Assembly (NCBI GenBank): GCA_009835325.1
Contig: VXWP01000117.1
Location: 33,111 to 97,110, forward strand
Length of the DNA stretch: 64,000 nucleotides
Direction of reading: 5' to 3'
From: Gemmatimonadota bacterium
GTDB lineage: Bacteria; JAAXHH01
Of this stretch, positions 1,116 to 39,052 are shown piece after piece; position 1 is the first letter of the stretch, and every line of letters starts with the position of its first letter. The notes below the pieces were generated by a model. The model had not been told where the DNA came from. It saw only the letters and a program-made list of their open reading frames with translations, and ran no database searches. The position numbers and the translations under genes were made by a program.

Positions 1116-1910
1116 ATGATGCTGGAATGCCAGATACAGGCCATGCGGACGGACGGCTGGTGCGTCCTGGACAACATTATCCCCGAAGACAGGCTGGCCG
1201 AGACACGCGACCGGGTCATCGCCTCCACCAACCGCCACCGGAATCCCGACGCACCCGCGAACATCGGCCACGTGAGTGGTTTCCTCAAGTACGACCAGTC
1301 GCTGGCGCCCTGGCTCGCGGACCGGCGGTTACTCGACCTGGCCGGCGCGCTGCTCGGACGCCATTTCCGCATCTCCTTCACCACGGCTACGATCAACGAG
1401 CCCGGAAACGACCGCGGAGGCTGGCACGCGGACTGGCCCTTCAACCAGCGGAACGCGGGACATGTGCCCGCTCCGTACCCGGACGCGGTCATGCACCTCA
1501 CGACCATCTGGATGCTCTCCTCATTCACCGGCGAGAACGGAGGCACACTCATCGTCCCGGGCAGCCACCGCAGCGACAACAACCCCACCGGCAACAACGG
1601 GATACCTCCCGACGAACCCCATCCGAGCGAACTGAACGTGACCGGCGAGGCGGGAAGCGTCCTCGTCATGGACAGCCGGCTCTGGCATTCCACGGCCGCC
1701 AACTCCTCCCGGGATCCGCGCGTGGCCGTCGTCGTCCGCTACGCGCCCTGGTGGCTGAACCTGAACGTGCTGCGGCCCGGTTCGGAAGACCGCCGGATCC
1801 TGGTGGACGAGACCGGCGGAACGGAAAACCTGGTCCCCACCCTCCCCAGGGACGTCTTCGACAGCCTGCCCGGCGAGCTGAAACCTCTCGTATCTCACTG
1901 GGTGGGGTAG
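1116..1910 (+). CDS. phytanoyl-CoA dioxygenase (PhyH) family Fe(II)/2OG oxygenase
   Basis: 264 aa with an HxD...H-type iron-binding pattern (WHADWPF ... LWHS). Resembles PhyH-family hydroxylases. Confidence 0.6.
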   Translation: MMLECQIQAMRTDGWCVLDNIIPEDRLAETRDRVIASTNRHRNPDAPANIGHVSGFLKYDQSLAPWLADRRLLDLAGALLGRHFRISFTTATINEPGNDRGGWHADWPFNQRNAGHVPAPYPDAVMHLTTIWMLSSFTGENGGTLIVPGSHRSDNNPTGNNGIPPDEPHPSELNVTGEAGSVLVMDSRLWHSTAANSSRDPRVAVVVRYAPWWLNLNVLRPGSEDRRILVDETGGTENLVPTLPRDVFDSLPGELKPLVSHWVG

Positions 1911-1915
1911 GACGT

Positions 1916-1954
1916 CCGTATACCTCAGCCGTATACCTCAGCCGTGTACCTCAG
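1916..1954. repeat. 13-bp tandem repeat x3 (ccgtatacctcag / ccgtgtacctcag) just after the PhyH stop
   Basis: Read directly: ccgtatacctcag ccgtatacctcag ccgtgtacctcag. Confidence 0.8.
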
Positions 1955-2060
1955 CAAGACATTCCCTGGGTCCCTGTAACATTATACCTCTCGCATTAGT
2001 CTAATGTTTAAGAATCGCAGCAAACCATTTCGATTCTAAACATCTCGATTGGAGGAGGTT

Positions 2061-3035
2061 ATGAGCCGGACTGGAGTTGTCGCGGTATTATGTGCGTGCG
2101 TTTGGATTTCAAGCGCGTGCAACACCCGGGAGTTCGGATTCGAGCGCGACGGGCAGATGAACGGTATTAAGCGTGATGGGCAGGACTATACCGAGACCTT
2201 TCGGCAGAATTACGAGGTCAACCCCGGGGGTACACTGACGGTCGATGCCGAATTGGGGGCAATTCACATTAAAAGCTCAATCCTAAATGAAGTAGATGTC
2301 CTGGTGAGAAAGCGATATCGGGCAACCGATGCAGGCCAGATTCGAAAAGCATTCAGTAATGTCGAAGTCGGAATTGAACAGACGGATAACGATGTACGAA
2401 TCGATGTCGACCGAATCGACGACAACGCAGAGAATTGGTTTTGGCAGGAAAAAACCCGCGTGGAAATCGAAGTAACGGTTCCCGTGGAATTCAATCTGGA
2501 CCTCAGTACGATTAGTGACAGTATCGAGACTGGAAACATCAAAGGAGACGTGACGGCCGAAACGCTTTCCGGGATCGTTTCGACCGGTCCAACCGAAGGT
2601 AATTTGAGCATAGAAACGACCAGCGGGCATATCAGAGCCGGTCGCGTAGTAGGCAGGGTACATACCAAAACACTGAGTGGGAGCATCGAAATTGGACCGG
2701 TGAATGGTAACGCGACACTCTCTTCAACCTCTGGCAGAATCGAAACAGATATCGTAAAGGGAGATCTGAACGCCGAATCCTTAAGTGGGCACATCAAGAT
2801 CGGACCCGTGAATCGTGACGCGACGCTCTCTTCCACCTCAGGCAGAATTGAATCTGATACCGTTAAGGGAGATCTGAACGCTGAGACCTTAAGTGGTAAC
2901 ATCAGGATTGGACCTGTGAATGGTGACGCGACGGTCTCTTCGACCTCGGGGAATATAAAAACTGGCCATGTGGGGGGAAAATTGGAAACCTCGACCCTCA
3001 GCGGCAAAATCGAAAGTAGTTTCCATACACGGTAA
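2061..3035 (+). CDS. secreted DUF4097-like beta-solenoid repeat protein (putative adhesin family), paralog A
   Basis: GGAGGAGG SD 2 nt upstream of ATG 2061 (the track ORF starts at an upstream TTG). Signal peptide present. ~20-aa repeats (SGxIxIGPVNGxATLSSTSGRIE) typical of DUF4097/YvlB-LiaG-like proteins. Markedly lower GC than its neighbours. Confidence 0.8.
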   Translation: MSRTGVVAVLCACVWISSACNTREFGFERDGQMNGIKRDGQDYTETFRQNYEVNPGGTLTVDAELGAIHIKSSILNEVDVLVRKRYRATDAGQIRKAFSNVEVGIEQTDNDVRIDVDRIDDNAENWFWQEKTRVEIEVTVPVEFNLDLSTISDSIETGNIKGDVTAETLSGIVSTGPTEGNLSIETTSGHIRAGRVVGRVHTKTLSGSIEIGPVNGNATLSSTSGRIETDIVKGDLNAESLSGHIKIGPVNRDATLSSTSGRIESDTVKGDLNAETLSGNIRIGPVNGDATVSSTSGNIKTGHVGGKLETSTLSGKIESSFHTR

Positions 3036-3162
3036 CGCCGTGCCCGGCACGGTCGAAGGAAACCTCCAGCGGCGACGCAACTATTTCATCATTGCCGGAG
3101 TCTTAGTCGCAGAACCGAAAGCTCGATGAACTTTAACCTAACCACACCAGGAATAGGGTCCC

Positions 3163-3936
3163 ATGAATGCGTTTTGGAAACTGTCGGTCGCTTGCGTATG
3201 TATAGTGGTGAATTTGAATGCAGCCGCGCAGGATACACAGGAAACCGAGATGATGCGAACTAACCAGGGATTCGTGGAGAGCATCACGGCGGCGTACACC
3301 GTCGATCCCGGCGGCGAGCTGATTATCGATGCCGACTTCGGATCGGTTCGGATCGAGACCGCGACCACCGACAAGGTGGAAATCCTCGTGGAAAAGCAGC
3401 GGAAGGAAGGCACTGAAGACGAGGCCCGCCGCGCCTTCGAAGATGTGGAGGTAACCACGGAACAGCGGGGCAACGACGTGCACGTCCGTGTCGACCATTC
3501 GCGATGGTTGGGACGCAACGGCATGTCCATCGAGATGAAGGTCCAGGTGCCATATACCTACAATCTGGATATCGAGACTGCAGGAGGCAGCATAATAATC
3601 GCGGACCTGGACGGCGAGATCGGGGCGAAGACGGCGGGCGGAAGCATCCGGATCGGCGCCACGCAGGGGGACGTGAACGCCCGGACCCTGGGTGGAAGCA
3701 TCCGCATCGGCCCGACCGAAGGGGGCGTGTCCGCGAAGACCCTGGGCGGCAGTATAGATATAGGTGACGCTAAGGGTGACGTGTCTGCCCAGACGATGGG
3801 CGGGAGCATCCGCGTCGGACGCACCGAAGGTGACCTGACCGCCTACACCATGGGCGGAAACATCACCGTGGAATCCGCTACGGGCAAAGTGTCGGCCAAG
3901 ACCCTGGGCGGCAAAGTCAGGGTCGGTTCCACGTAA
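3163..3936 (+). CDS. secreted DUF4097-like beta-solenoid repeat protein, paralog B
   Basis: Signal peptide present. The N-terminal domain is homologous to paralogs A and C (YxVDPGGxLxIDADFGSIRIE). Repeated TxGGSIRIG units. Confidence 0.8.
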   Translation: MNAFWKLSVACVCIVVNLNAAAQDTQETEMMRTNQGFVESITAAYTVDPGGELIIDADFGSVRIETATTDKVEILVEKQRKEGTEDEARRAFEDVEVTTEQRGNDVHVRVDHSRWLGRNGMSIEMKVQVPYTYNLDIETAGGSIIIADLDGEIGAKTAGGSIRIGATQGDVNARTLGGSIRIGPTEGGVSAKTLGGSIDIGDAKGDVSAQTMGGSIRVGRTEGDLTAYTMGGNITVESATGKVSAKTLGGKVRVGST

Positions 3937-7721: not shown

Positions 7722-10286
7722 ATGCCAATATTCCCACCCGTCCGCAAAACCGGCGGCACTTGTTTCATCTTGGCCTGTCTGCTGTTCCTCCCAGGCATCA
7801 CGGGGGCGCAATCGCCCCAGGATCGGACCGCGACCGAAACGGACATGACGGAATCCGTAGTGGCCATGACGGGGGAAATCGAAAGGACATCGAATCCTCG
7901 ACCGTTCAGCGTTCCTCTTCCCGTATCCAAGTCGCCCTTCGACTATAGGACCCTGGATCCCGAGGACTATATGCTGGAGGCCAGACGGGTTAATGCTGCC
8001 ATCCAGGTGGACGGCCATCTGGACGAAGCCGAATGGCAGCAGGCGGATGTCGCCAAAGATTTCTTCCAGCTCGAGCCGGTTGAGGGCGCACCGGCCACTT
8101 ATCCCACCGAAGTCCGTGTAATGTACGACGACAAGAACCTGTACGTGGGATTCGTCTGCTTCGACCCGAATCCGGAGCAGATCATGGCGCCGGACATGCA
8201 ACGCGATACGAGAATGAGCTGGTCGAACGACATGGTCACGGTCGTCATCGCATCGCTCGACCACTACCGCGAAGCCTTCGAATTCCAGACCAATCCCAAC
8301 GGCGCCCGGTCCGACTCCTTCGTCAGCGCCGAAGGCAATAACTCCGACCGTGACTGGAACGGGCTGTGGAACGCGGCCAGCCAGATCTATGATTACGGAT
8401 GGTCGGCCGAGTACGTGATCCCCTTCCATACCCTCAGGTTTCCGCGACGCCGCGATCAGACGTGGGGCATTAACTTCGGACGCCGCATTCAGCGCACCCG
8501 GGAGGAATCGTTCTGGGTTCCACTGAGCCTGAGGGACGGTGACCAGGCGCTCTATCGCTTCGGCAAGGGCGGCCGGCTGACGGCCCTGTCCGACATCACG
8601 CCGGGCGGGCGGGTGCAGGCGACGCCCTTCACCGTACTCGGCGGCCAGTCTTCCCGGTTCACTGAATCCGCCCCGTCGCCCGTCCAGCCCATCGCGGCGA
8701 CGGCCCTCGACAACGACATGCAGCGGAAACTGGGCGGCGACCTGAAGGTCAGCGTTACTTCCGGGATGACGCTGAACGCCACGGTCAACCCCGATTTCGC
8801 CCAGGTGGAAGCGGACGATGAGGTCGTGAACCTTTCCCGCTTCGAATTCCAGTTCACCGAAAAGCGGCCCTTCTTCCTGGAACGCAGCGATATCTTCACC
8901 TTGAACGAGCGGCCGCAGCGCCGCGGACCTCAGCGCAACTTTGGCGACCTGACGCCCCAGCTCTTCTTCAGCCGGCGCGTTGGCCGGCAGTTGCCGGACG
9001 GACAGACCGTTCCCATCGACCTCGGGATGCGCCTTACCGGCAAGTTCGGTCACACGACCGTAGGGTTCCTGAACGTCCAGACCCGGGAGACCCGGTACGA
9101 CGACGACGGAGAGGAGAAGACGGAACCGCTGACCAACTGGCAGGCTTTGCGAGTACGGCAAGACTTTGGATCACGGTCCAGCGTGGGCATGCTGGCCACC
9201 TTCAAGGAACCGAATCCCCGGTTCGACGACCGTGTCGGAATGGCCCTGCCACGGTACGCGGAATCGGACTACAACAGGGTGTTGGGGTTCGACCTGAACC
9301 TGGCCTCACAGGCGACCAATCACCGGGGACAGATCACCTTCGCCAAGAGCTGGACGGATACGGTGAGCACCAGCAACCAGGACTGGACCTTCCGGGTTAT
9401 CGAACGGTGGCAGAATCGTTGGCTGATGTACGGCGTTTCCTTCCTGGATATCGGGGAGGACTTCATCAGCCAGACCGGGCTGGTACGGGACGAAGGCCTG
9501 CAAAGGGTCGGGGGTGGACTTACGGCCAACACTTTTCTGCGCCGGTTCGGCATACGTCGCATCAGCGGGGGCTTTCGGAGTAATTACGTGACCCGGAAGG
9601 ACACGGGCTTCTCCGATGCCGATTCCTGGTCCTTCCAGCCCAACGTGTTCCTGGAACTGGAGCGGGGTCTGTGGATTTCCGCCTCGTACGACATGCGATT
9701 CGATACACTGAGCAAAACGACGCGTATCGCCGGTGTGCATTTCCCCGAGGGATCCTATTCCTACAACCAGGCAAACATGTTCCTCTTTACCGACAGCGGC
9801 CGGAAAGTCTCCTTACAGGGCAATGTCCGGTTCGGTCGATTCTACGGTGCCGATCTGCTCAGTATTTCGAGCGAACTGTCCCTAAAGCCGAATCCCCGTT
9901 TCGCACTGGAACCGGGCATCACCCGCAGCCAGGTCGACCGGGGCAATCGAGAGGGGCTGGAGGACGACGAATACGATCATCGTACCCAGCTCATACCGAG
10001 CGTCCGGATGAGTTACGCATTCACGCCGAACCTTTCGTTCTCCTCCTTCATCCAGTTCAACGCGGACCGGCAACGGGAGATCGACGACTTCCACACGAAT
10101 ACGGTAACGATGAATCTCCTTCTCGCCTACCGGTCGCCCTTCGGCCACTCGTTCTTCCTGGCCTTCAACCAGTTCCGTGACGACGACCTCGATACCGACG
10201 GAAGCTTCGGGGTCTACGAACGGACGCCGCTAAGGCTGCGGGACCAGCAGATCGTGGCCAAGGTCTCCTACCTGTTCAACCTGTAG
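7722..10286 (+). CDS. large secreted protein with an N-terminal CBM9-like/DOMON-like domain and a DUF5916-like C-terminal region
   Basis: GGAGG lies 5 nt before ATG 7722. Signal peptide (FILACLLFLPGITGAQS). The N-terminal region (AIQVDGHLDEAEWQQA...) resembles carbohydrate-binding family-9-like domains. The domain assignment is made from memory. Confidence 0.6.
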   Translation: MPIFPPVRKTGGTCFILACLLFLPGITGAQSPQDRTATETDMTESVVAMTGEIERTSNPRPFSVPLPVSKSPFDYRTLDPEDYMLEARRVNAAIQVDGHLDEAEWQQADVAKDFFQLEPVEGAPATYPTEVRVMYDDKNLYVGFVCFDPNPEQIMAPDMQRDTRMSWSNDMVTVVIASLDHYREAFEFQTNPNGARSDSFVSAEGNNSDRDWNGLWNAASQIYDYGWSAEYVIPFHTLRFPRRRDQTWGINFGRRIQRTREESFWVPLSLRDGDQALYRFGKGGRLTALSDITPGGRVQATPFTVLGGQSSRFTESAPSPVQPIAATALDNDMQRKLGGDLKVSVTSGMTLNATVNPDFAQVEADDEVVNLSRFEFQFTEKRPFFLERSDIFTLNERPQRRGPQRNFGDLTPQLFFSRRVGRQLPDGQTVPIDLGMRLTGKFGHTTVGFLNVQTRETRYDDDGEEKTEPLTNWQALRVRQDFGSRSSVGMLATFKEPNPRFDDRVGMALPRYAESDYNRVLGFDLNLASQATNHRGQITFAKSWTDTVSTSNQDWTFRVIERWQNRWLMYGVSFLDIGEDFISQTGLVRDEGLQRVGGGLTANTFLRRFGIRRISGGFRSNYVTRKDTGFSDADSWSFQPNVFLELERGLWISASYDMRFDTLSKTTRIAGVHFPEGSYSYNQANMFLFTDSGRKVSLQGNVRFGRFYGADLLSISSELSLKPNPRFALEPGITRSQVDRGNREGLEDDEYDHRTQLIPSVRMSYAFTPNLSFSSFIQFNADRQREIDDFHTNTVTMNLLLAYRSPFGHSFFLAFNQFRDDDLDTDGSFGVYERTPLRLRDQQIVAKVSYLFNL

Positions 10287-36386: not shown

Positions 36387-36761
36387 ATGACTGAACACGC
36401 AGAACACGGACATCAAGCCGAAGGTGGCCATCAAGCCGAAGGCGGACACGGGGACCACCACGGCCCCCACATCGCGACCACGGCCAACTACCTGACCATC
36501 TTCACGGCGCTGCTGGTCCTCACCGCCGTGACCGTGTGGGCGGCCACCATGGAATTGGGCTTTCTCAACACGCCTGTGGCCATGTTCATCGCCAGCGTAA
36601 AGGCCATCCTGGTGATCCTGTACTTCATGCACCTGAAGTTCAGCCCCGGCCAGACCAAGCTCGCCGCCGCCGCAGCCATCTTCTGGCTGCTCATTCTCCT
36701 CATCATCACCTTCTTCGACTACATAGGCCGCACCTGGCAGGACAATCCCGCGGGCTGGTAA
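36387..36761 (+). CDS. cytochrome c oxidase subunit IV (bacterial caa3-type small subunit) with His-rich N-terminus
   Basis: Three TM helices. Position after coxC. N-terminal HGHQAEGGHQAEGGHGDHHGPH. Confidence 0.7.
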   Translation: MTEHAEHGHQAEGGHQAEGGHGDHHGPHIATTANYLTIFTALLVLTAVTVWAATMELGFLNTPVAMFIASVKAILVILYFMHLKFSPGQTKLAAAAAIFWLLILLIITFFDYIGRTWQDNPAGW

Positions 36762-37114
36762 CGGGCTGGATTTTGTCCTCAGCTAAGCCGTCGGCCGTAC
36801 CGCTTGGATGGCGAATCGTCCAAACCTCCGGTTGACGTTCTGCCCTTCGACGAACCGCCTTCCAAAGTCAAATGGCCGCTACTGCCGAAGCATCGGTTGT
36901 GGCGCGGGTGCGGTTTTCTCTTCTGTCGGCGACGGATCAAGTTCCCCCTTTTTAAAAAAACCACGATATAGCCCTTTCAATTCTGACTATCCCCTTTAGG
37001 ACATCGGACGTGTATTGTGCCACGCGGAATCTGCATCATGGCCGGTACCCGTTCCAGTACCATTCGTGTACGCCGTACACCAATCGGTTCATTCAGTTGC
37101 ATAAGGAGGGGGTC

Positions 37115-37438
37115 ATGTTGAAAGGTATTTCGGATACGAACACGGAAGAACAGATATTGCGCTCAATAGATGTTCTTAAAGAAGTTGTACTATCTTCGAG
37201 AACGGACACCAAACAGCGGTTCGAACGTGTTGAAGCCGACATCACGGCATTCCGATCGGACGTCAATCAGCGGTTCGAAGGCGTCGAGTCCGACATCCAA
37301 GACATCCGTAAGGAATTGTCGGAGTTCCGAACGGACGTCAATCAGCGGTTTGAACGCGTTGAAGCCGACTTCAAGGAAGTTCGAAACGACATCAAGGAGA
37401 TCAAGGAGTCGCTGCGAGAGATGAACAGGCGCGGTTGA
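37115..37438 (+). CDS. small coiled-coil repeat protein (three R[ST]DV[NK]QRFE[RG]VE[AS]D units), unknown function
   Basis: AAGGAGGG SD 4 nt before ATG 37115. Lies in an AT-rich island. The 142-aa track ORF is over-extended upstream. Confidence 0.5.
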   Translation: MLKGISDTNTEEQILRSIDVLKEVVLSSRTDTKQRFERVEADITAFRSDVNQRFEGVESDIQDIRKELSEFRTDVNQRFERVEADFKEVRNDIKEIKESLREMNRRG

Positions 37439-37509
37439 TTGACACGGAGGGGAGGTTTTGCAGGCGAGATCATCAAACCTGCGCACAGTTCGCACAATAG
37501 GAGTACGTC

Positions 37510-37701
37510 ATGTGGGAAAACCCAGTCACATACGCAGTACTATTAGGCGCGATGGGTAGTCTTGTCAGCATTGGGGTATGGATCGGCAGAGTAAATTCGT
37601 TCAAAGCTTCAGTTGAAAACACGCTTGCGGAGATCAAAGAATCCATCAAAGGCATTCAGGATTCCATCGAGAAGATCCTGCTCCGACTACCGCCGGATTG
37701 A
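37510..37701 (+). CDS. small protein with an N-terminal TM helix and C-terminal coiled coil, unknown function
   Basis: AGGAG SD 6 nt before the ATG. Same AT-rich island. Confidence 0.45.
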   Translation: MWENPVTYAVLLGAMGSLVSIGVWIGRVNSFKASVENTLAEIKESIKGIQDSIEKILLRLPPD

Positions 37702-37750
37702 AGCGGAATTGCACGGGTAATGTGAATCGTAAACAGCTTGCGAGCCGGAG

Positions 37751-39052
37751 CTAGATATACCTTACCCATCCTTTGGGACGGCGGGCTTTGAATCGGCGGA
37801 ACCACAGGCACACCGGATAGAGCAGGATCAGCACCCCCAGGGCGGCCAGGTAGGCGGCGCCCAGACCCTGTTGCATGAACATGCCCAGAGCCAGCCCGCT
37901 GAAGATCAGGATGTGCATATGAATCAGGTAGAAGAAGAAGGCGGTCTGGCCGAACACCAGCAGGGGATTCCGGTTTCGGATCGGATTTTTCAAATTGCGC
38001 TGGTACCGGAAGAAACCGGACAGGATCAGGGCCATCAGACCCAGCTCCAGCAGTGCGAAGGTCAGGCTTGGCGGGTATTTACTGACATAGAGCCACTGCA
38101 CCAGGGAAAAGTCCTCACGCAGGAGCAGCATGTTGCCATATCCGTTCCAGGCGCGGAACAGCACGAACAGTCCCAGTGCCAGAAGCCCCGCGATGACCAG
38201 CAGGCGCTCAATCGGCATCGGGGACCGTGGCGCGCCGGCGGACGCTCCGATGGTCGACCCACTTGAAACATCGGACGACGGCGTCGGTGCGATCGATTGC
38301 TGTACCAGGTAACGCCCCAGCAACCAGCCCAGGATCATCATCCCCAGCCAGGGCACGAAGGGATACTGCACCCACAGGGGTATGGGGCCGATCTTGACGA
38401 GCAGCCCCGGATGAAAAAACGGGTTGAAAACGCTCATCCAGCCCAGGTTGCGGACCTGGGCAGCCGCCTCGTTCATCGCTTCCTGATCGAATTCCCCGTC
38501 CGGCATCGGCATCTTCGTCACCTCGCGAATCATGTCGGCCGAAATGCCGCCCAGGTGCATGATGCCCCAGAACACGGCTTCGTGACGGAACAGGATCGAA
38601 AGGGCGGCGATCAGCAGCGTGCGGGTGGACAGGCGCCGCAGGGGGATCATGCAGATCAGGCCCATGGCGATGGCGAACAGGACCTGGAGACTGAACGGAG
38701 ACCACCACAGCAGTTCGAAGGCAAGGATGACGAGCGCCCGCTTGAACAGGTGCCGATCCAGGTCGCGGTCACGCGCGCCGGCAAGACGGCGCCGCTCGAA
38801 ACTCAGCGCCAGCGCGGTCCCGGCCAGGAAGACGAAGGTCGGCGCGCACAGGTGGGTGATCCAGCGTGTGAAGAACTGGGCGGCGGGGAGCGCGGTTCCC
38901 GCCTCATGGGCGTACCACGAATCGTCGGCGAGCCGGCCACCGTTAAACGCCAGGCTGGCGTGGTCGATGGCCATCAGGACCATGACGAGGCCGCGCATCC
39001 AGTCGATCGCCGCCATGCGGTTGGCGTCTGTGATCGGCCGCGTTCCAGCCAT
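37751..39052 (-). CDS. polytopic membrane acyltransferase-3-like protein (HGSNAT/DUF1624-like)
   Basis: About 10 TM segments. N-terminal motif MAAIDWMRGLVMVLMAIDHA is typical of this family. Confidence 0.6.
   Translation of the reverse strand: MAGTRPITDANRMAAIDWMRGLVMVLMAIDHASLAFNGGRLADDSWYAHEAGTALPAAQFFTRWITHLCAPTFVFLAGTALALSFERRRLAGARDRDLDRHLFKRALVILAFELLWWSPFSLQVLFAIAMGLICMIPLRRLSTRTLLIAALSILFRHEAVFWGIMHLGGISADMIREVTKMPMPDGEFDQEAMNEAAAQVRNLGWMSVFNPFFHPGLLVKIGPIPLWVQYPFVPWLGMMILGWLLGRYLVQQSIAPTPSSDVSSGSTIGASAGAPRSPMPIERLLVIAGLLALGLFVLFRAWNGYGNMLLLREDFSLVQWLYVSKYPPSLTFALLELGLMALILSGFFRYQRNLKNPIRNRNPLLVFGQTAFFFYLIHMHILIFSGLALGMFMQQGLGAAYLAALGVLILLYPVCLWFRRFKARRPKGWVRYI

Follow-up and report, generated by a model that had tools for sequence, protein, structure and literature searches.

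Introduction

XhlA, a lysis-associated membrane protein of the PBSX prophage, carries its coiled coil first and its transmembrane (TM) helix last in one chain, and small single-TM proteins often serve as accessory subunits or assembly factors of oxidases. Leaders at the 5' end of mRNAs that sequester a Shine-Dalgarno (SD) sequence are likewise known, among them RNA thermometers, the leader of rpoS and, in type I toxin mRNAs (hok), a fold-back structure. Here we compare with these systems two small genes, called g1 and g2, that lie between a caa3 cytochrome oxidase operon and an acyltransferase gene in a 64,000-nucleotide stretch of contig VXWP01000117.1 from a Gemmatimonadota bacterium (hereafter the window, meaning the whole stretch of DNA analyzed; coordinates of the features are collected in Table 1).

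XhlA resembles the pair in uniting a coiled coil and one TM helix in a small protein and in a weak profile match to the repeats of g1, whereas in the present pair coiled coil and TM helix are divided between two proteins, the TM helix of g2 comes first and the holin/amidase context is missing. Coiled-coil proteins of the DUF1640/CCDC90-like type and bitopic ones of the PspB/FtsB type are similar in architecture only (short proteins with a heptad helix joined to one TM helix, or with a coiled coil behind a TEEQ-containing N-terminus) but have no detectable homology to the pair, and g1 aligned to a DUF1640 protein in hhalign with a probability of 5.7%, which is not significant. The leader of g1 would be like the SD-sequestering leaders in that a segment far upstream is predicted to pair with the SD and the start codon, the closed state being predicted to lower SD accessibility from 0.63 to 0.23. 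It differs from RNA thermometers in that its helix stays closed in silico from 10 to 65 C, from type I toxin mRNAs such as hok in that the product of g1 is a soluble coiled coil and not a hydrophobic toxin, and from the described leaders in general in that no Rfam family was matched.

Gene pair in related genomes

We read the two genes as the surviving core of an old accessory slot between the caa3 operon and the acyltransferase gene in a narrow, sponge/coral-associated clade, and not as a recent insertion, a reading that we regard as evenly poised between right and wrong. The related loci examined (n = 20, in metagenome-assembled genomes (MAGs) labelled Gemmatimonadetes or Latescibacterota; loci are cited by L numbers and proteins by P numbers) carried g1 and/or g2, or remnants of them, in 20 of 20 cases. 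Wherever a locus reached the flanks, these genes were located between coxIV and the acyltransferase/pyridoxal phosphate (PLP)-dependent decarboxylase genes, and the same slot was filled in L001-L005, L009-L015, L022 and L023. The GC content of g1 and g2 was 44-55%, versus 58-62% for the loci, in all seven loci measured (7/7).

The first-pass annotation of this region had proposed a candidate horizontally acquired island, to be checked by the presence or absence of the insertion in related genomes. The genes were present, at the same place and with similar GC, which is the outcome that the annotation itself had set against an island, and the presence/absence polymorphism of a recent island was not seen, the slot being filled in every relative examined. 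The acquisition, if there was one, therefore predates the clade. What stood was the accessory character of the region, seen in the gene flux of the slot and in the wider family of g2, which adjoins insertion sequence (IS) elements, integrases and toxin-antitoxin genes. The apparent micro-island thereby becomes a documented long-lived accessory slot, in which mobile-type genes come and go and two tiny genes persist under selection.

The flanking proteins were 80-99% identical and the synonymous divergence (dS) of the flanks was 0.1-0.65, which points to a shallow, roughly genus-level clade. g1 was found in seven of 185,579 species-representative genomes, all seven of them MAGs; those of their labels that name a lineage read Gemmatimonadetes or Candidatus Latescibacterota, and one genome bears a 'Plut' isolate label. 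One further locus was gained from a scan of JGI metagenomes. Isolate and sample labels hint at sponge and coral sources for the MAGs with g1/g2.

Within the window, the GC content of positions 36900-37750 was 50.2% against a window mean of 62.0% (z = -3.6, 851-bp windows), and the GC minimum of the entire 64 kb (0.492) started at 36914; a second trough below 0.53 occurred only once, near 1750-3450. The GC content at third codon positions (GC3) was 0.60 for g1 and 0.53 for g2, compared with 0.82-0.91 for coxIV, cox1 and the acyltransferase gene. The atypical composition noted earlier for the pair was thus confirmed for this genome, in GC as in GC3, and of the estimate of about 50% GC against flanks of about 65% the trough stood, while the flanks ranged from 58 to 65% and were not uniformly 65%. 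We infer that foreign or accessory ancestry and a K/E/I/N-rich composition together account for the low GC, which was kept clade-wide. Neither an integrase nor a tRNA was found at the borders of the gene pair in the window. The only inverted repeat flanking the pair (37046-65 / 37700-19, 70% complementary) was considered as an attachment (att) repeat and rejected, lying inside the leader and being probably a chance occurrence.

Gene flux and decay in the slot

The 353-bp spacer between coxIV and g1 contains the remnant of an HNH endonuclease gene, in which PVDVLPFDEPPSKVKWPLLPKHRLW (25 residues) matches residues 159-183 of the HNH protein of L005 with 64% identity (E-value (E) 8e-5). The L005 protein is intact, 188 aa long and encoded at the same place, and it matches PF01844 at E 4e-11; weaker HNH remnants were detected with tblastn in L012, L002 and L011. 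Gene decay in the slot is directly evidenced by this remnant.

The content of the slot varies among the relatives. In L005 an intact HNH endonuclease gene and a collagen-trypsin gene are located between coxIV and the small genes, which follow in the order g2, g1 and then a protease remnant. In L004 and L023, g2 is missing and g1 precedes a retropepsin-like protease and/or CreD, and L006-8 have g2 followed by the retropepsin-like protease, CreD and a DUF433/PIN pair. L012 has g1 only, and in L015 g1 and the retropepsin-like protease are pseudogenes and g2 is intact. Unrelated genes (HNH, collagen-trypsin, exo/endonuclease-phosphatase) intervene between coxIV and the pair in L005, L006 and L015. 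The most economical reading of these arrangements is that an accessory cluster of old standing, acquired by the time of the clade ancestor at the latest, was then eroded differentially, with g1 and g2 as its most persistent parts. The company of HNH, retropepsin-like protease and toxin-antitoxin genes and of IS elements points to a putative accessory role of the conflict or stress type over one in respiration.

The retropepsin-like aspartic protease (about 140 aa, PF13650, DTGA motif) is intact in L004 (6001-6851), where it overlaps the end of g1 by 4 nt, and in L006 (6001-6622), where it lies 13 nt behind g2; L005 (6356-6601) has a truncated remnant of it and L015 (8217-8357) a pseudogene, and the window lacks it. 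This protease may be the ancestral partner of the small genes. A literature search for bacterial retropepsin-like proteases with toxin-antitoxin systems found no paper. A third small open reading frame (ORF) lies directly upstream of g2 in L006 (5775-6000) and encodes a W-x-N-x-P start, a TM helix and then RLDDIDARLRTVEQDVAVIKGRL heptads; its sequence suggests an anchor-module paralogue in tandem.

g2 and its wider family

The first-pass annotation had called two short genes with SDs; both are real, and homologues were found for both. Its description of the second as encoding a 63-aa protein with an AGGAG SD, an N-terminal TM helix and a coiled coil also held: the predicted TM helix spans residues 8-26 (nt 37531-37587; 19-residue Kyte-Doolittle maximum 1.74) and is followed by 3-4 hydrophobic spacing over about four heptads and the end RLPPD. 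The positive-inside rule would place the heptad helix in the cytoplasm. The exact sequence is deposited as MXW06475.1/MYB62627.1, a hypothetical protein of Gemmatimonadetes MAGs. The close homologues (n = 21) were 70-94% identical, and 18 of the 21 were exactly 63 aa long. Against seven relatives, the ratio of nonsynonymous to synonymous divergence (dN/dS) was 0.08-0.17 at dS 0.34-1.14, which shows g2 to be a functional gene under clear purifying selection; its dS was two to three times that of cox3 and the PLP-dependent decarboxylase gene. The start region of g2 is unstructured and its AGGAG unpaired in the fold of 37400-37545 (z +0.47), and a masked SD was rejected for this gene.

A search of 1.84 billion representative proteins with a profile of the g2 family gave 62 matches, most of them proteins of 150-190 aa that aligned over their first ~60 residues (1-63) at E 1e-13 to 1e-4. 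In this unnamed family (e.g., P0111, P0131, P0144, P0146), to whose N-terminal 63 residues the whole of g2 aligns, the N-terminus comprises a W-x-NP start, a TM helix, a WIGxVN membrane exit and a heptad stalk (EI[KR]xxI) ending in RLPP, and low GC and a location in accessory regions are further points of likeness to g2. Unlike g2, its members have a C-terminal head domain of about 100 aa with the motifs SPLxLTDLG, PYEIQEFC, AYExG and ELRD, and they are encoded by solitary genes without a g1-like partner. g2 stops exactly at the RLPP-D domain boundary (alignment A4), where the N-terminal anchor-plus-stalk module is present and the head absent, and this alignment indicates that g2 is a headless version of an unannotated TM-stalk-head family.

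At least 80 full-length proteins belong to the family; none of them has a name, and none was matched by a Pfam or NCBIfam model. The GC content of their genes is below that of the hosts, and in several different bacteria they adjoin IS1595 and IS21 transposase, integrase, Fic/helix-turn-helix (HTH), HigBA-like and PAAR-toxin genes; in the neighborhoods inspected the wider family was never beside cox genes. The head was modelled with confidence as a five-helix domain (block-mean predicted local distance difference test (pLDDT) score 86 over residues 61-70 and 92-97 beyond residue 70). Searches with the wider family gave coiled-coil noise only against the PDB by sequence profile and no fold match in BFVD, and the modelled head appears to be without a clear structural relative. 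Three proteins of one lineage that are otherwise the same (P0161, P0165 and P0168; L024 5001-5801) vary in the number of 11-residue stalk repeats (ELRQELSETTA), which suggests that stalk length variation is a trait of the family and not of g1 alone.

g1 and its repeats

g1 encodes the three repeat units RTDTKQRFERVEADI, RSDVNQRFEGVESDI and RTDVNQRFERVEADF, at residues 29, 47 and 72, which are seen in the DNA too as three copies of 61-73% identity spaced by 54 and 75 nt. A protein of 107 aa with three units had been described before, and this was borne out except that the regular expression given for the units was slightly too strict for units 1 and 3. The repeats are missed by Tandem Repeats Finder because their spacing is irregular. 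The g1 homologues (n = 25) range from 60 to 156 aa and differ in repeat number, with the reading frame kept intact through the repeat changes and with an invariant N-terminus (MLKGISDTNTEEQILRSIDVLKEVVLS; GISDTNTEEQ...DVL..V). AlphaFold2 modelled the g1 protein as one continuous helix (residues 8-106, pLDDT 92), and no TM helix was found in it; the product is predicted to be a cytoplasmic helix of about 100 residues, the length of which varies among relatives as 18/25-residue repeats are gained and lost. The 3-4 hydrophobic spacing is interrupted by a 4-4 stutter once per repeat (period 3.55), a pattern that looks like that of a coiled-coil rod, the length of which would scale with repeat number.

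A run of N occurs inside the g1 repeat region of L013 (~8187-8290; public MAG SB0665_bin_8), being either masked sequence or an assembly gap, and g2 is frameshifted at the C-terminus in the same MAG (P0045, 82 aa); the repeats may have caused both as artefacts of assembly.

Leader upstream of g1

The leader of g1 contains a conserved block, a candidate anti-SD element, with a 26-nt core (CGATA-N9-CAATNCNGACTA, 36964-36989) that is unique in the window and was matched exactly in nine loci. Three segments of the block are complementary to the start region of g1: CCCTTTCAA (36972-36980) pairs with codons 2-4, TGACT (36984-36988) with the GTCA that overlaps the ATG, and TCCCCTT (36990-36996) with the SD, which ends 2 nt 5' of the ATG. 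This long-range helix closes the leader in the RNAalifold consensus, in the minimum free energy (MFE) structure of the window sequence (-56.5 kcal/mol, z -2.46) and in the separate MFE structures of seven relatives. Across the alignment 92.9% of cells were paired, versus 24-51% with the partner slid by 1-3 columns, and three pairs had compensatory changes. In the window, L001-3, L009, L010 and L013 the block-to-start duplex had an energy of -21 to -26 kcal/mol (z -3 to -4.4), and in L005 one of -19.6 kcal/mol; it was weaker in L012 (-17.4 kcal/mol, z -1.6); counted over these closely related sequences, pairing was strong in eight loci and weak or absent in seven.

The probability of the g1 SD being unpaired was 0.17-0.33 from 10 to 65 C in silico, and removal of the block in silico lifted SD accessibility from 0.23 to 0.63. 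The G-U pairs in the helix favor an RNA of the + strand. On the strength of these models we incline to the view that the pairing between block and start region is real and regulatory, gating translation of g1; the block may also, or instead, be a promoter or operator. An RNA thermometer was rejected, the SD staying paired from 10 to 65 C in the temperature scans. Rfam gave no match in the region at E<=5 and none in the whole window at gathering thresholds, and a scan for sigma-70 promoters and terminators gave nothing above shuffle expectation and no site in the leader.

The inverted repeat reported earlier upstream of g1 is present and forms a local stem in the window MFE structure, but relatives do not conserve it: at the corresponding positions L001, L002 and L011 have GTGAATGCCGTCGAC, and L009 and L012 have GTGTATGCCATCGAC, and neither sequence is self-complementary. 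A 7-nt insertion in the leader at 36999-37008, which was also present in L013 and was missing from the other aligned relatives, separates the conserved block from the remainder of the leader and appears to be a tandem duplication around GGACAT/GGACGT.

Relationship between g1 and g2

The 3' end of g1 and the coding sequence of g2 share a 15-mer encoding EIKES, and natural in-frame g1::g2 fusions at this junction were found in P0004, P0008 and the single 149-aa ORF of L010 (8001-8450). The fusion product is the g1 rod ending in the C-terminal 29 residues of g2, with the TM helix gone, and the fusions arose by natural deletion between the shared 15-mers. The g1-g2 spacer varies from ~60 to ~110 nt with the SD and start of g2 kept; in the window (37455-37470) it is without ~34 nt found in most relatives, as seen against L001, L002, L009 and L013.

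In the mechanism that we propose for the pair, g1 would form a coiled-coil rod and dock on g2 by way of the cytoplasmic helix of this membrane anchor. Docking would use the similar C-terminal heptads and yield a rod tethered to the membrane and variable in length; this is possible, though we hold it to be doubtful. Synthesis of g1 would be gated after transcription, with the block ~130 nt upstream pairing with the SD, the AUG and codons 2-4, and opening of this helix for translation would need 5' processing, a small RNA or a protein, or an alternative start site; g2 would be translated freely from its own unmasked SD. A bolder extension, which we rate as rather unlikely, is that the g2 family consists of undescribed, widely scattered, mobilome-associated stalk-and-head proteins anchored in the membrane (possibly conflict/defence sensors or effectors), the headless anchor having been domesticated in one symbiont clade together with a length-variable partner gated by a new fold-back leader RNA.

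Several observations weigh against the accessory-slot reading and the mechanism attached to it. g2 occurs alone in L015 and L006-8 and g1 alone in L004, L012 and L023, so that the case for an obligate g1-g2 complex is weakened; the two-gene module of the first-pass annotation is likewise not obligate, since an intact g1 or an intact g2 stands alone in some relatives. Repeated loss, fusion or frameshifting has affected both genes, so that any function would be dispensable. The coiled coil of g1 and the stalk of the family are weakly similar (hhalign probability 12%, which is not significant; a hidden Markov model of the family stalk scored g1 at 10-15 bits, slightly above shuffles at no more than 7.4 bits). 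In the leader, the core is kept where pairing is weak (L014/L022, z -0.6) or absent (L004/L021/L023, z +1, with a 70-nt insertion), so that the block may be mainly a promoter or operator; the duplex is absent in the L015 pseudogene as well. Covariation among these closely related sequences is modest, with 7 of 500 shuffles reaching the observed score, and depending on the transcription start the block may lie outside the g1 mRNA.

The locus offers as leads an unannotated protein family, a coiled-coil protein with repeat-driven length and a testable SD-masking leader. Current understanding is unchanged by it, and its use lies in the annotation of small proteins in symbiont MAGs.

Alternative explanations

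The first-pass annotation had reported no confident family match, and Pfam, NCBIfam, PHROG and PADLOC indeed gave only inconsistent coiled-coil matches. Its likening of the pair to a phage-derived lysis or XhlA/holin-like cassette was not supported, although weak matches in this direction do exist, namely XhlA (PF10779) on the g1 repeats at E 0.0018, PHROG holin and hemolysin profiles at E 0.014-0.3 and phrog_9415, a family of unknown function, at E 3e-9 over the g1 repeat region. The XhlA match scored 18.8 bits, below the cut-off of 34.7, and at E<1e-3 this model matched 4 of the 26 g1-family members and left g2 unmatched, quite apart from the differing topology; the best holin matches in PHROG (g1 E 0.014, g2 E 0.31) were at noise level. 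Relatives of g1 or g2 were absent from 2.9 million IMG/VR contigs, the family had no fold match in BFVD, and no XhlB, amidase, endolysin or other phage gene was found near the pair in the window or the related loci, so that a lysis cassette is largely refuted and extremely improbable. The g1 family also matched NPV_P10 (9/26 members), FlaC (9/26) and KxDL (3/26); KxDL (PF10241) scored 30.7 bits with g1 of the window, above the 27.2 cut-off, yet it matched just these three members and was rejected as a coiled-coil artefact. None of the coiled-coil families matched represents real membership, and g2 had no Pfam match at all. A role as accessory subunits or assembly factors of the adjacent upstream caa3 oxidase would suit a small bitopic protein such as g2 and a pair that in most loci lies directly 3' of cox2-cox1-cox3-coxIV and shares their strand. 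It is nevertheless very improbable given the decayed HNH gene and long spacer after coxIV, the unrelated genes that intervene in three loci, the very different codon usage (GC3 0.53-0.60 vs 0.82-0.91), the wider g2 family that is never beside cox genes and the restriction of g1 to seven species genomes. An invertible DNA switch, in which 36972-36996 and 37103-37125 would act as inverted repeats and an invertase would flip the g1 start region (phase variation), could draw on the inverted complementarity that flanks ~130 bp including the SD and ATG and on a repeat variation in g1 that resembles contingency loci; we consider its probability close to negligible, since the helix relies on G-U pairs that work only in the + strand RNA, the orientation is the same in 20 of 20 loci with no inverted reads or contigs seen, and no invertase gene lies in the neighborhood.

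A membrane toxin with its regulator, an abortive-infection system or another defence cassette would have g2 as a membrane-damaging effector, g1 as regulator or sensor and the fold-back leader as a silencer like that of type I toxin mRNAs. The HNH, retropepsin-like protease and DUF433/PIN toxin-antitoxin genes in the slot of relatives, the IS elements, Fic and HigBA-like genes beside the wider g2 family, the sequestered SD and the small single-TM nature of g2 are all in keeping with this, but the masked gene is the soluble g1 and the SD of the membrane protein g2 is open. Strict co-dependence also fails, with g2 intact where g1 is a pseudogene (L015) and g1 present without g2 in L004, L012 and L023, and PADLOC returned nothing for g2 and coiled-coil noise only for g1, no antisense RNA was detected and Rfam was empty; we deem such a cassette improbable. 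Decaying and essentially functionless island remnants, that is, a truncated family gene (g2) with a repeat-expanded leftover (g1), would be expected to show what is seen in L004, L006, L010, L012, L013, L015 and L023, where g1 or g2 is lost, fused or frameshifted, and the truncation of g2 relative to the longer family and the other gene remnants in the slot agree with this. That g2 has exactly 63 codons in 18 of 21 close homologues and a low dN/dS (0.08-0.17 at dS 0.3-1.1), that g1 has an invariant N-terminus and a frame intact through repeat changes, and that the SDs and the leader are conserved speak against it, and we judge it unlikely as an account of the pair.

Features of the locus and other observations

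Table 1. Coordinates in the window of the gene pair, its leader and the adjoining genes
Feature	Position	Strand	Basis or remark
caa3 subunit IV (coxIV)	36387-36761	+	TIGR02229, E 1e-25
HNH endonuclease 3'-end remnant	36828-36902	+	tblastn; in the coxIV-g1 spacer
Conserved leader block, candidate anti-SD element	36964-36997	+	CGATA-N9-CAATNCNGACTA core; alignment, pairing
GTGTAC-gcc-GTACAC inverted repeat	37066-37080	+	local stem inside leader in window MFE structure; 34 nt before ATG
g1 initiation region: SD AAGGAGGGGG (37103-37112), ATG (37115-37117), codons 2-4 TTGAAAGG (37118-37125)	37103-37125	+	
g1, 107 aa, soluble	37115-37438	+	ORF, SD, homologues
g1 repeat units	37199-37243, 37253-37297, 37328-37372	+	18/25-residue units
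15-mer GGAGATCAAGGAGTC (EIKES), g1 3' end	37396-37410	+	recurs in g2 at 37629-37643 as GGAGATCAAAGAATC
g2 SD AGGAG	37499-37503	+	ends 6 nt before ATG; kept in relatives
g2, 63-aa bitopic membrane protein	37510-37701	+	ORF, SD, homologues
Acyl_transf_3 protein (acyltransferase gene)	37751-39052	-	profile match

The neighbors named in the first-pass annotation, the cox operon and the acyltransferase gene, were as stated, with coxIV and the acyltransferase gene matching the models listed in Table 1, and 49 bp separate the end of g2 from the convergent acyltransferase gene. The other strong GC trough of the window (~50%) holds a 328-aa ORF (2049-3035) with many ~20-residue repeats (LSGxIxIGPVNGDATLSSTSGRIE). 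The N-terminus of this ORF is hydrophobic and contains Cys, possibly a lipoprotein signal, and the ORF is adjoined by a 257-aa paralogue (3163-3936).

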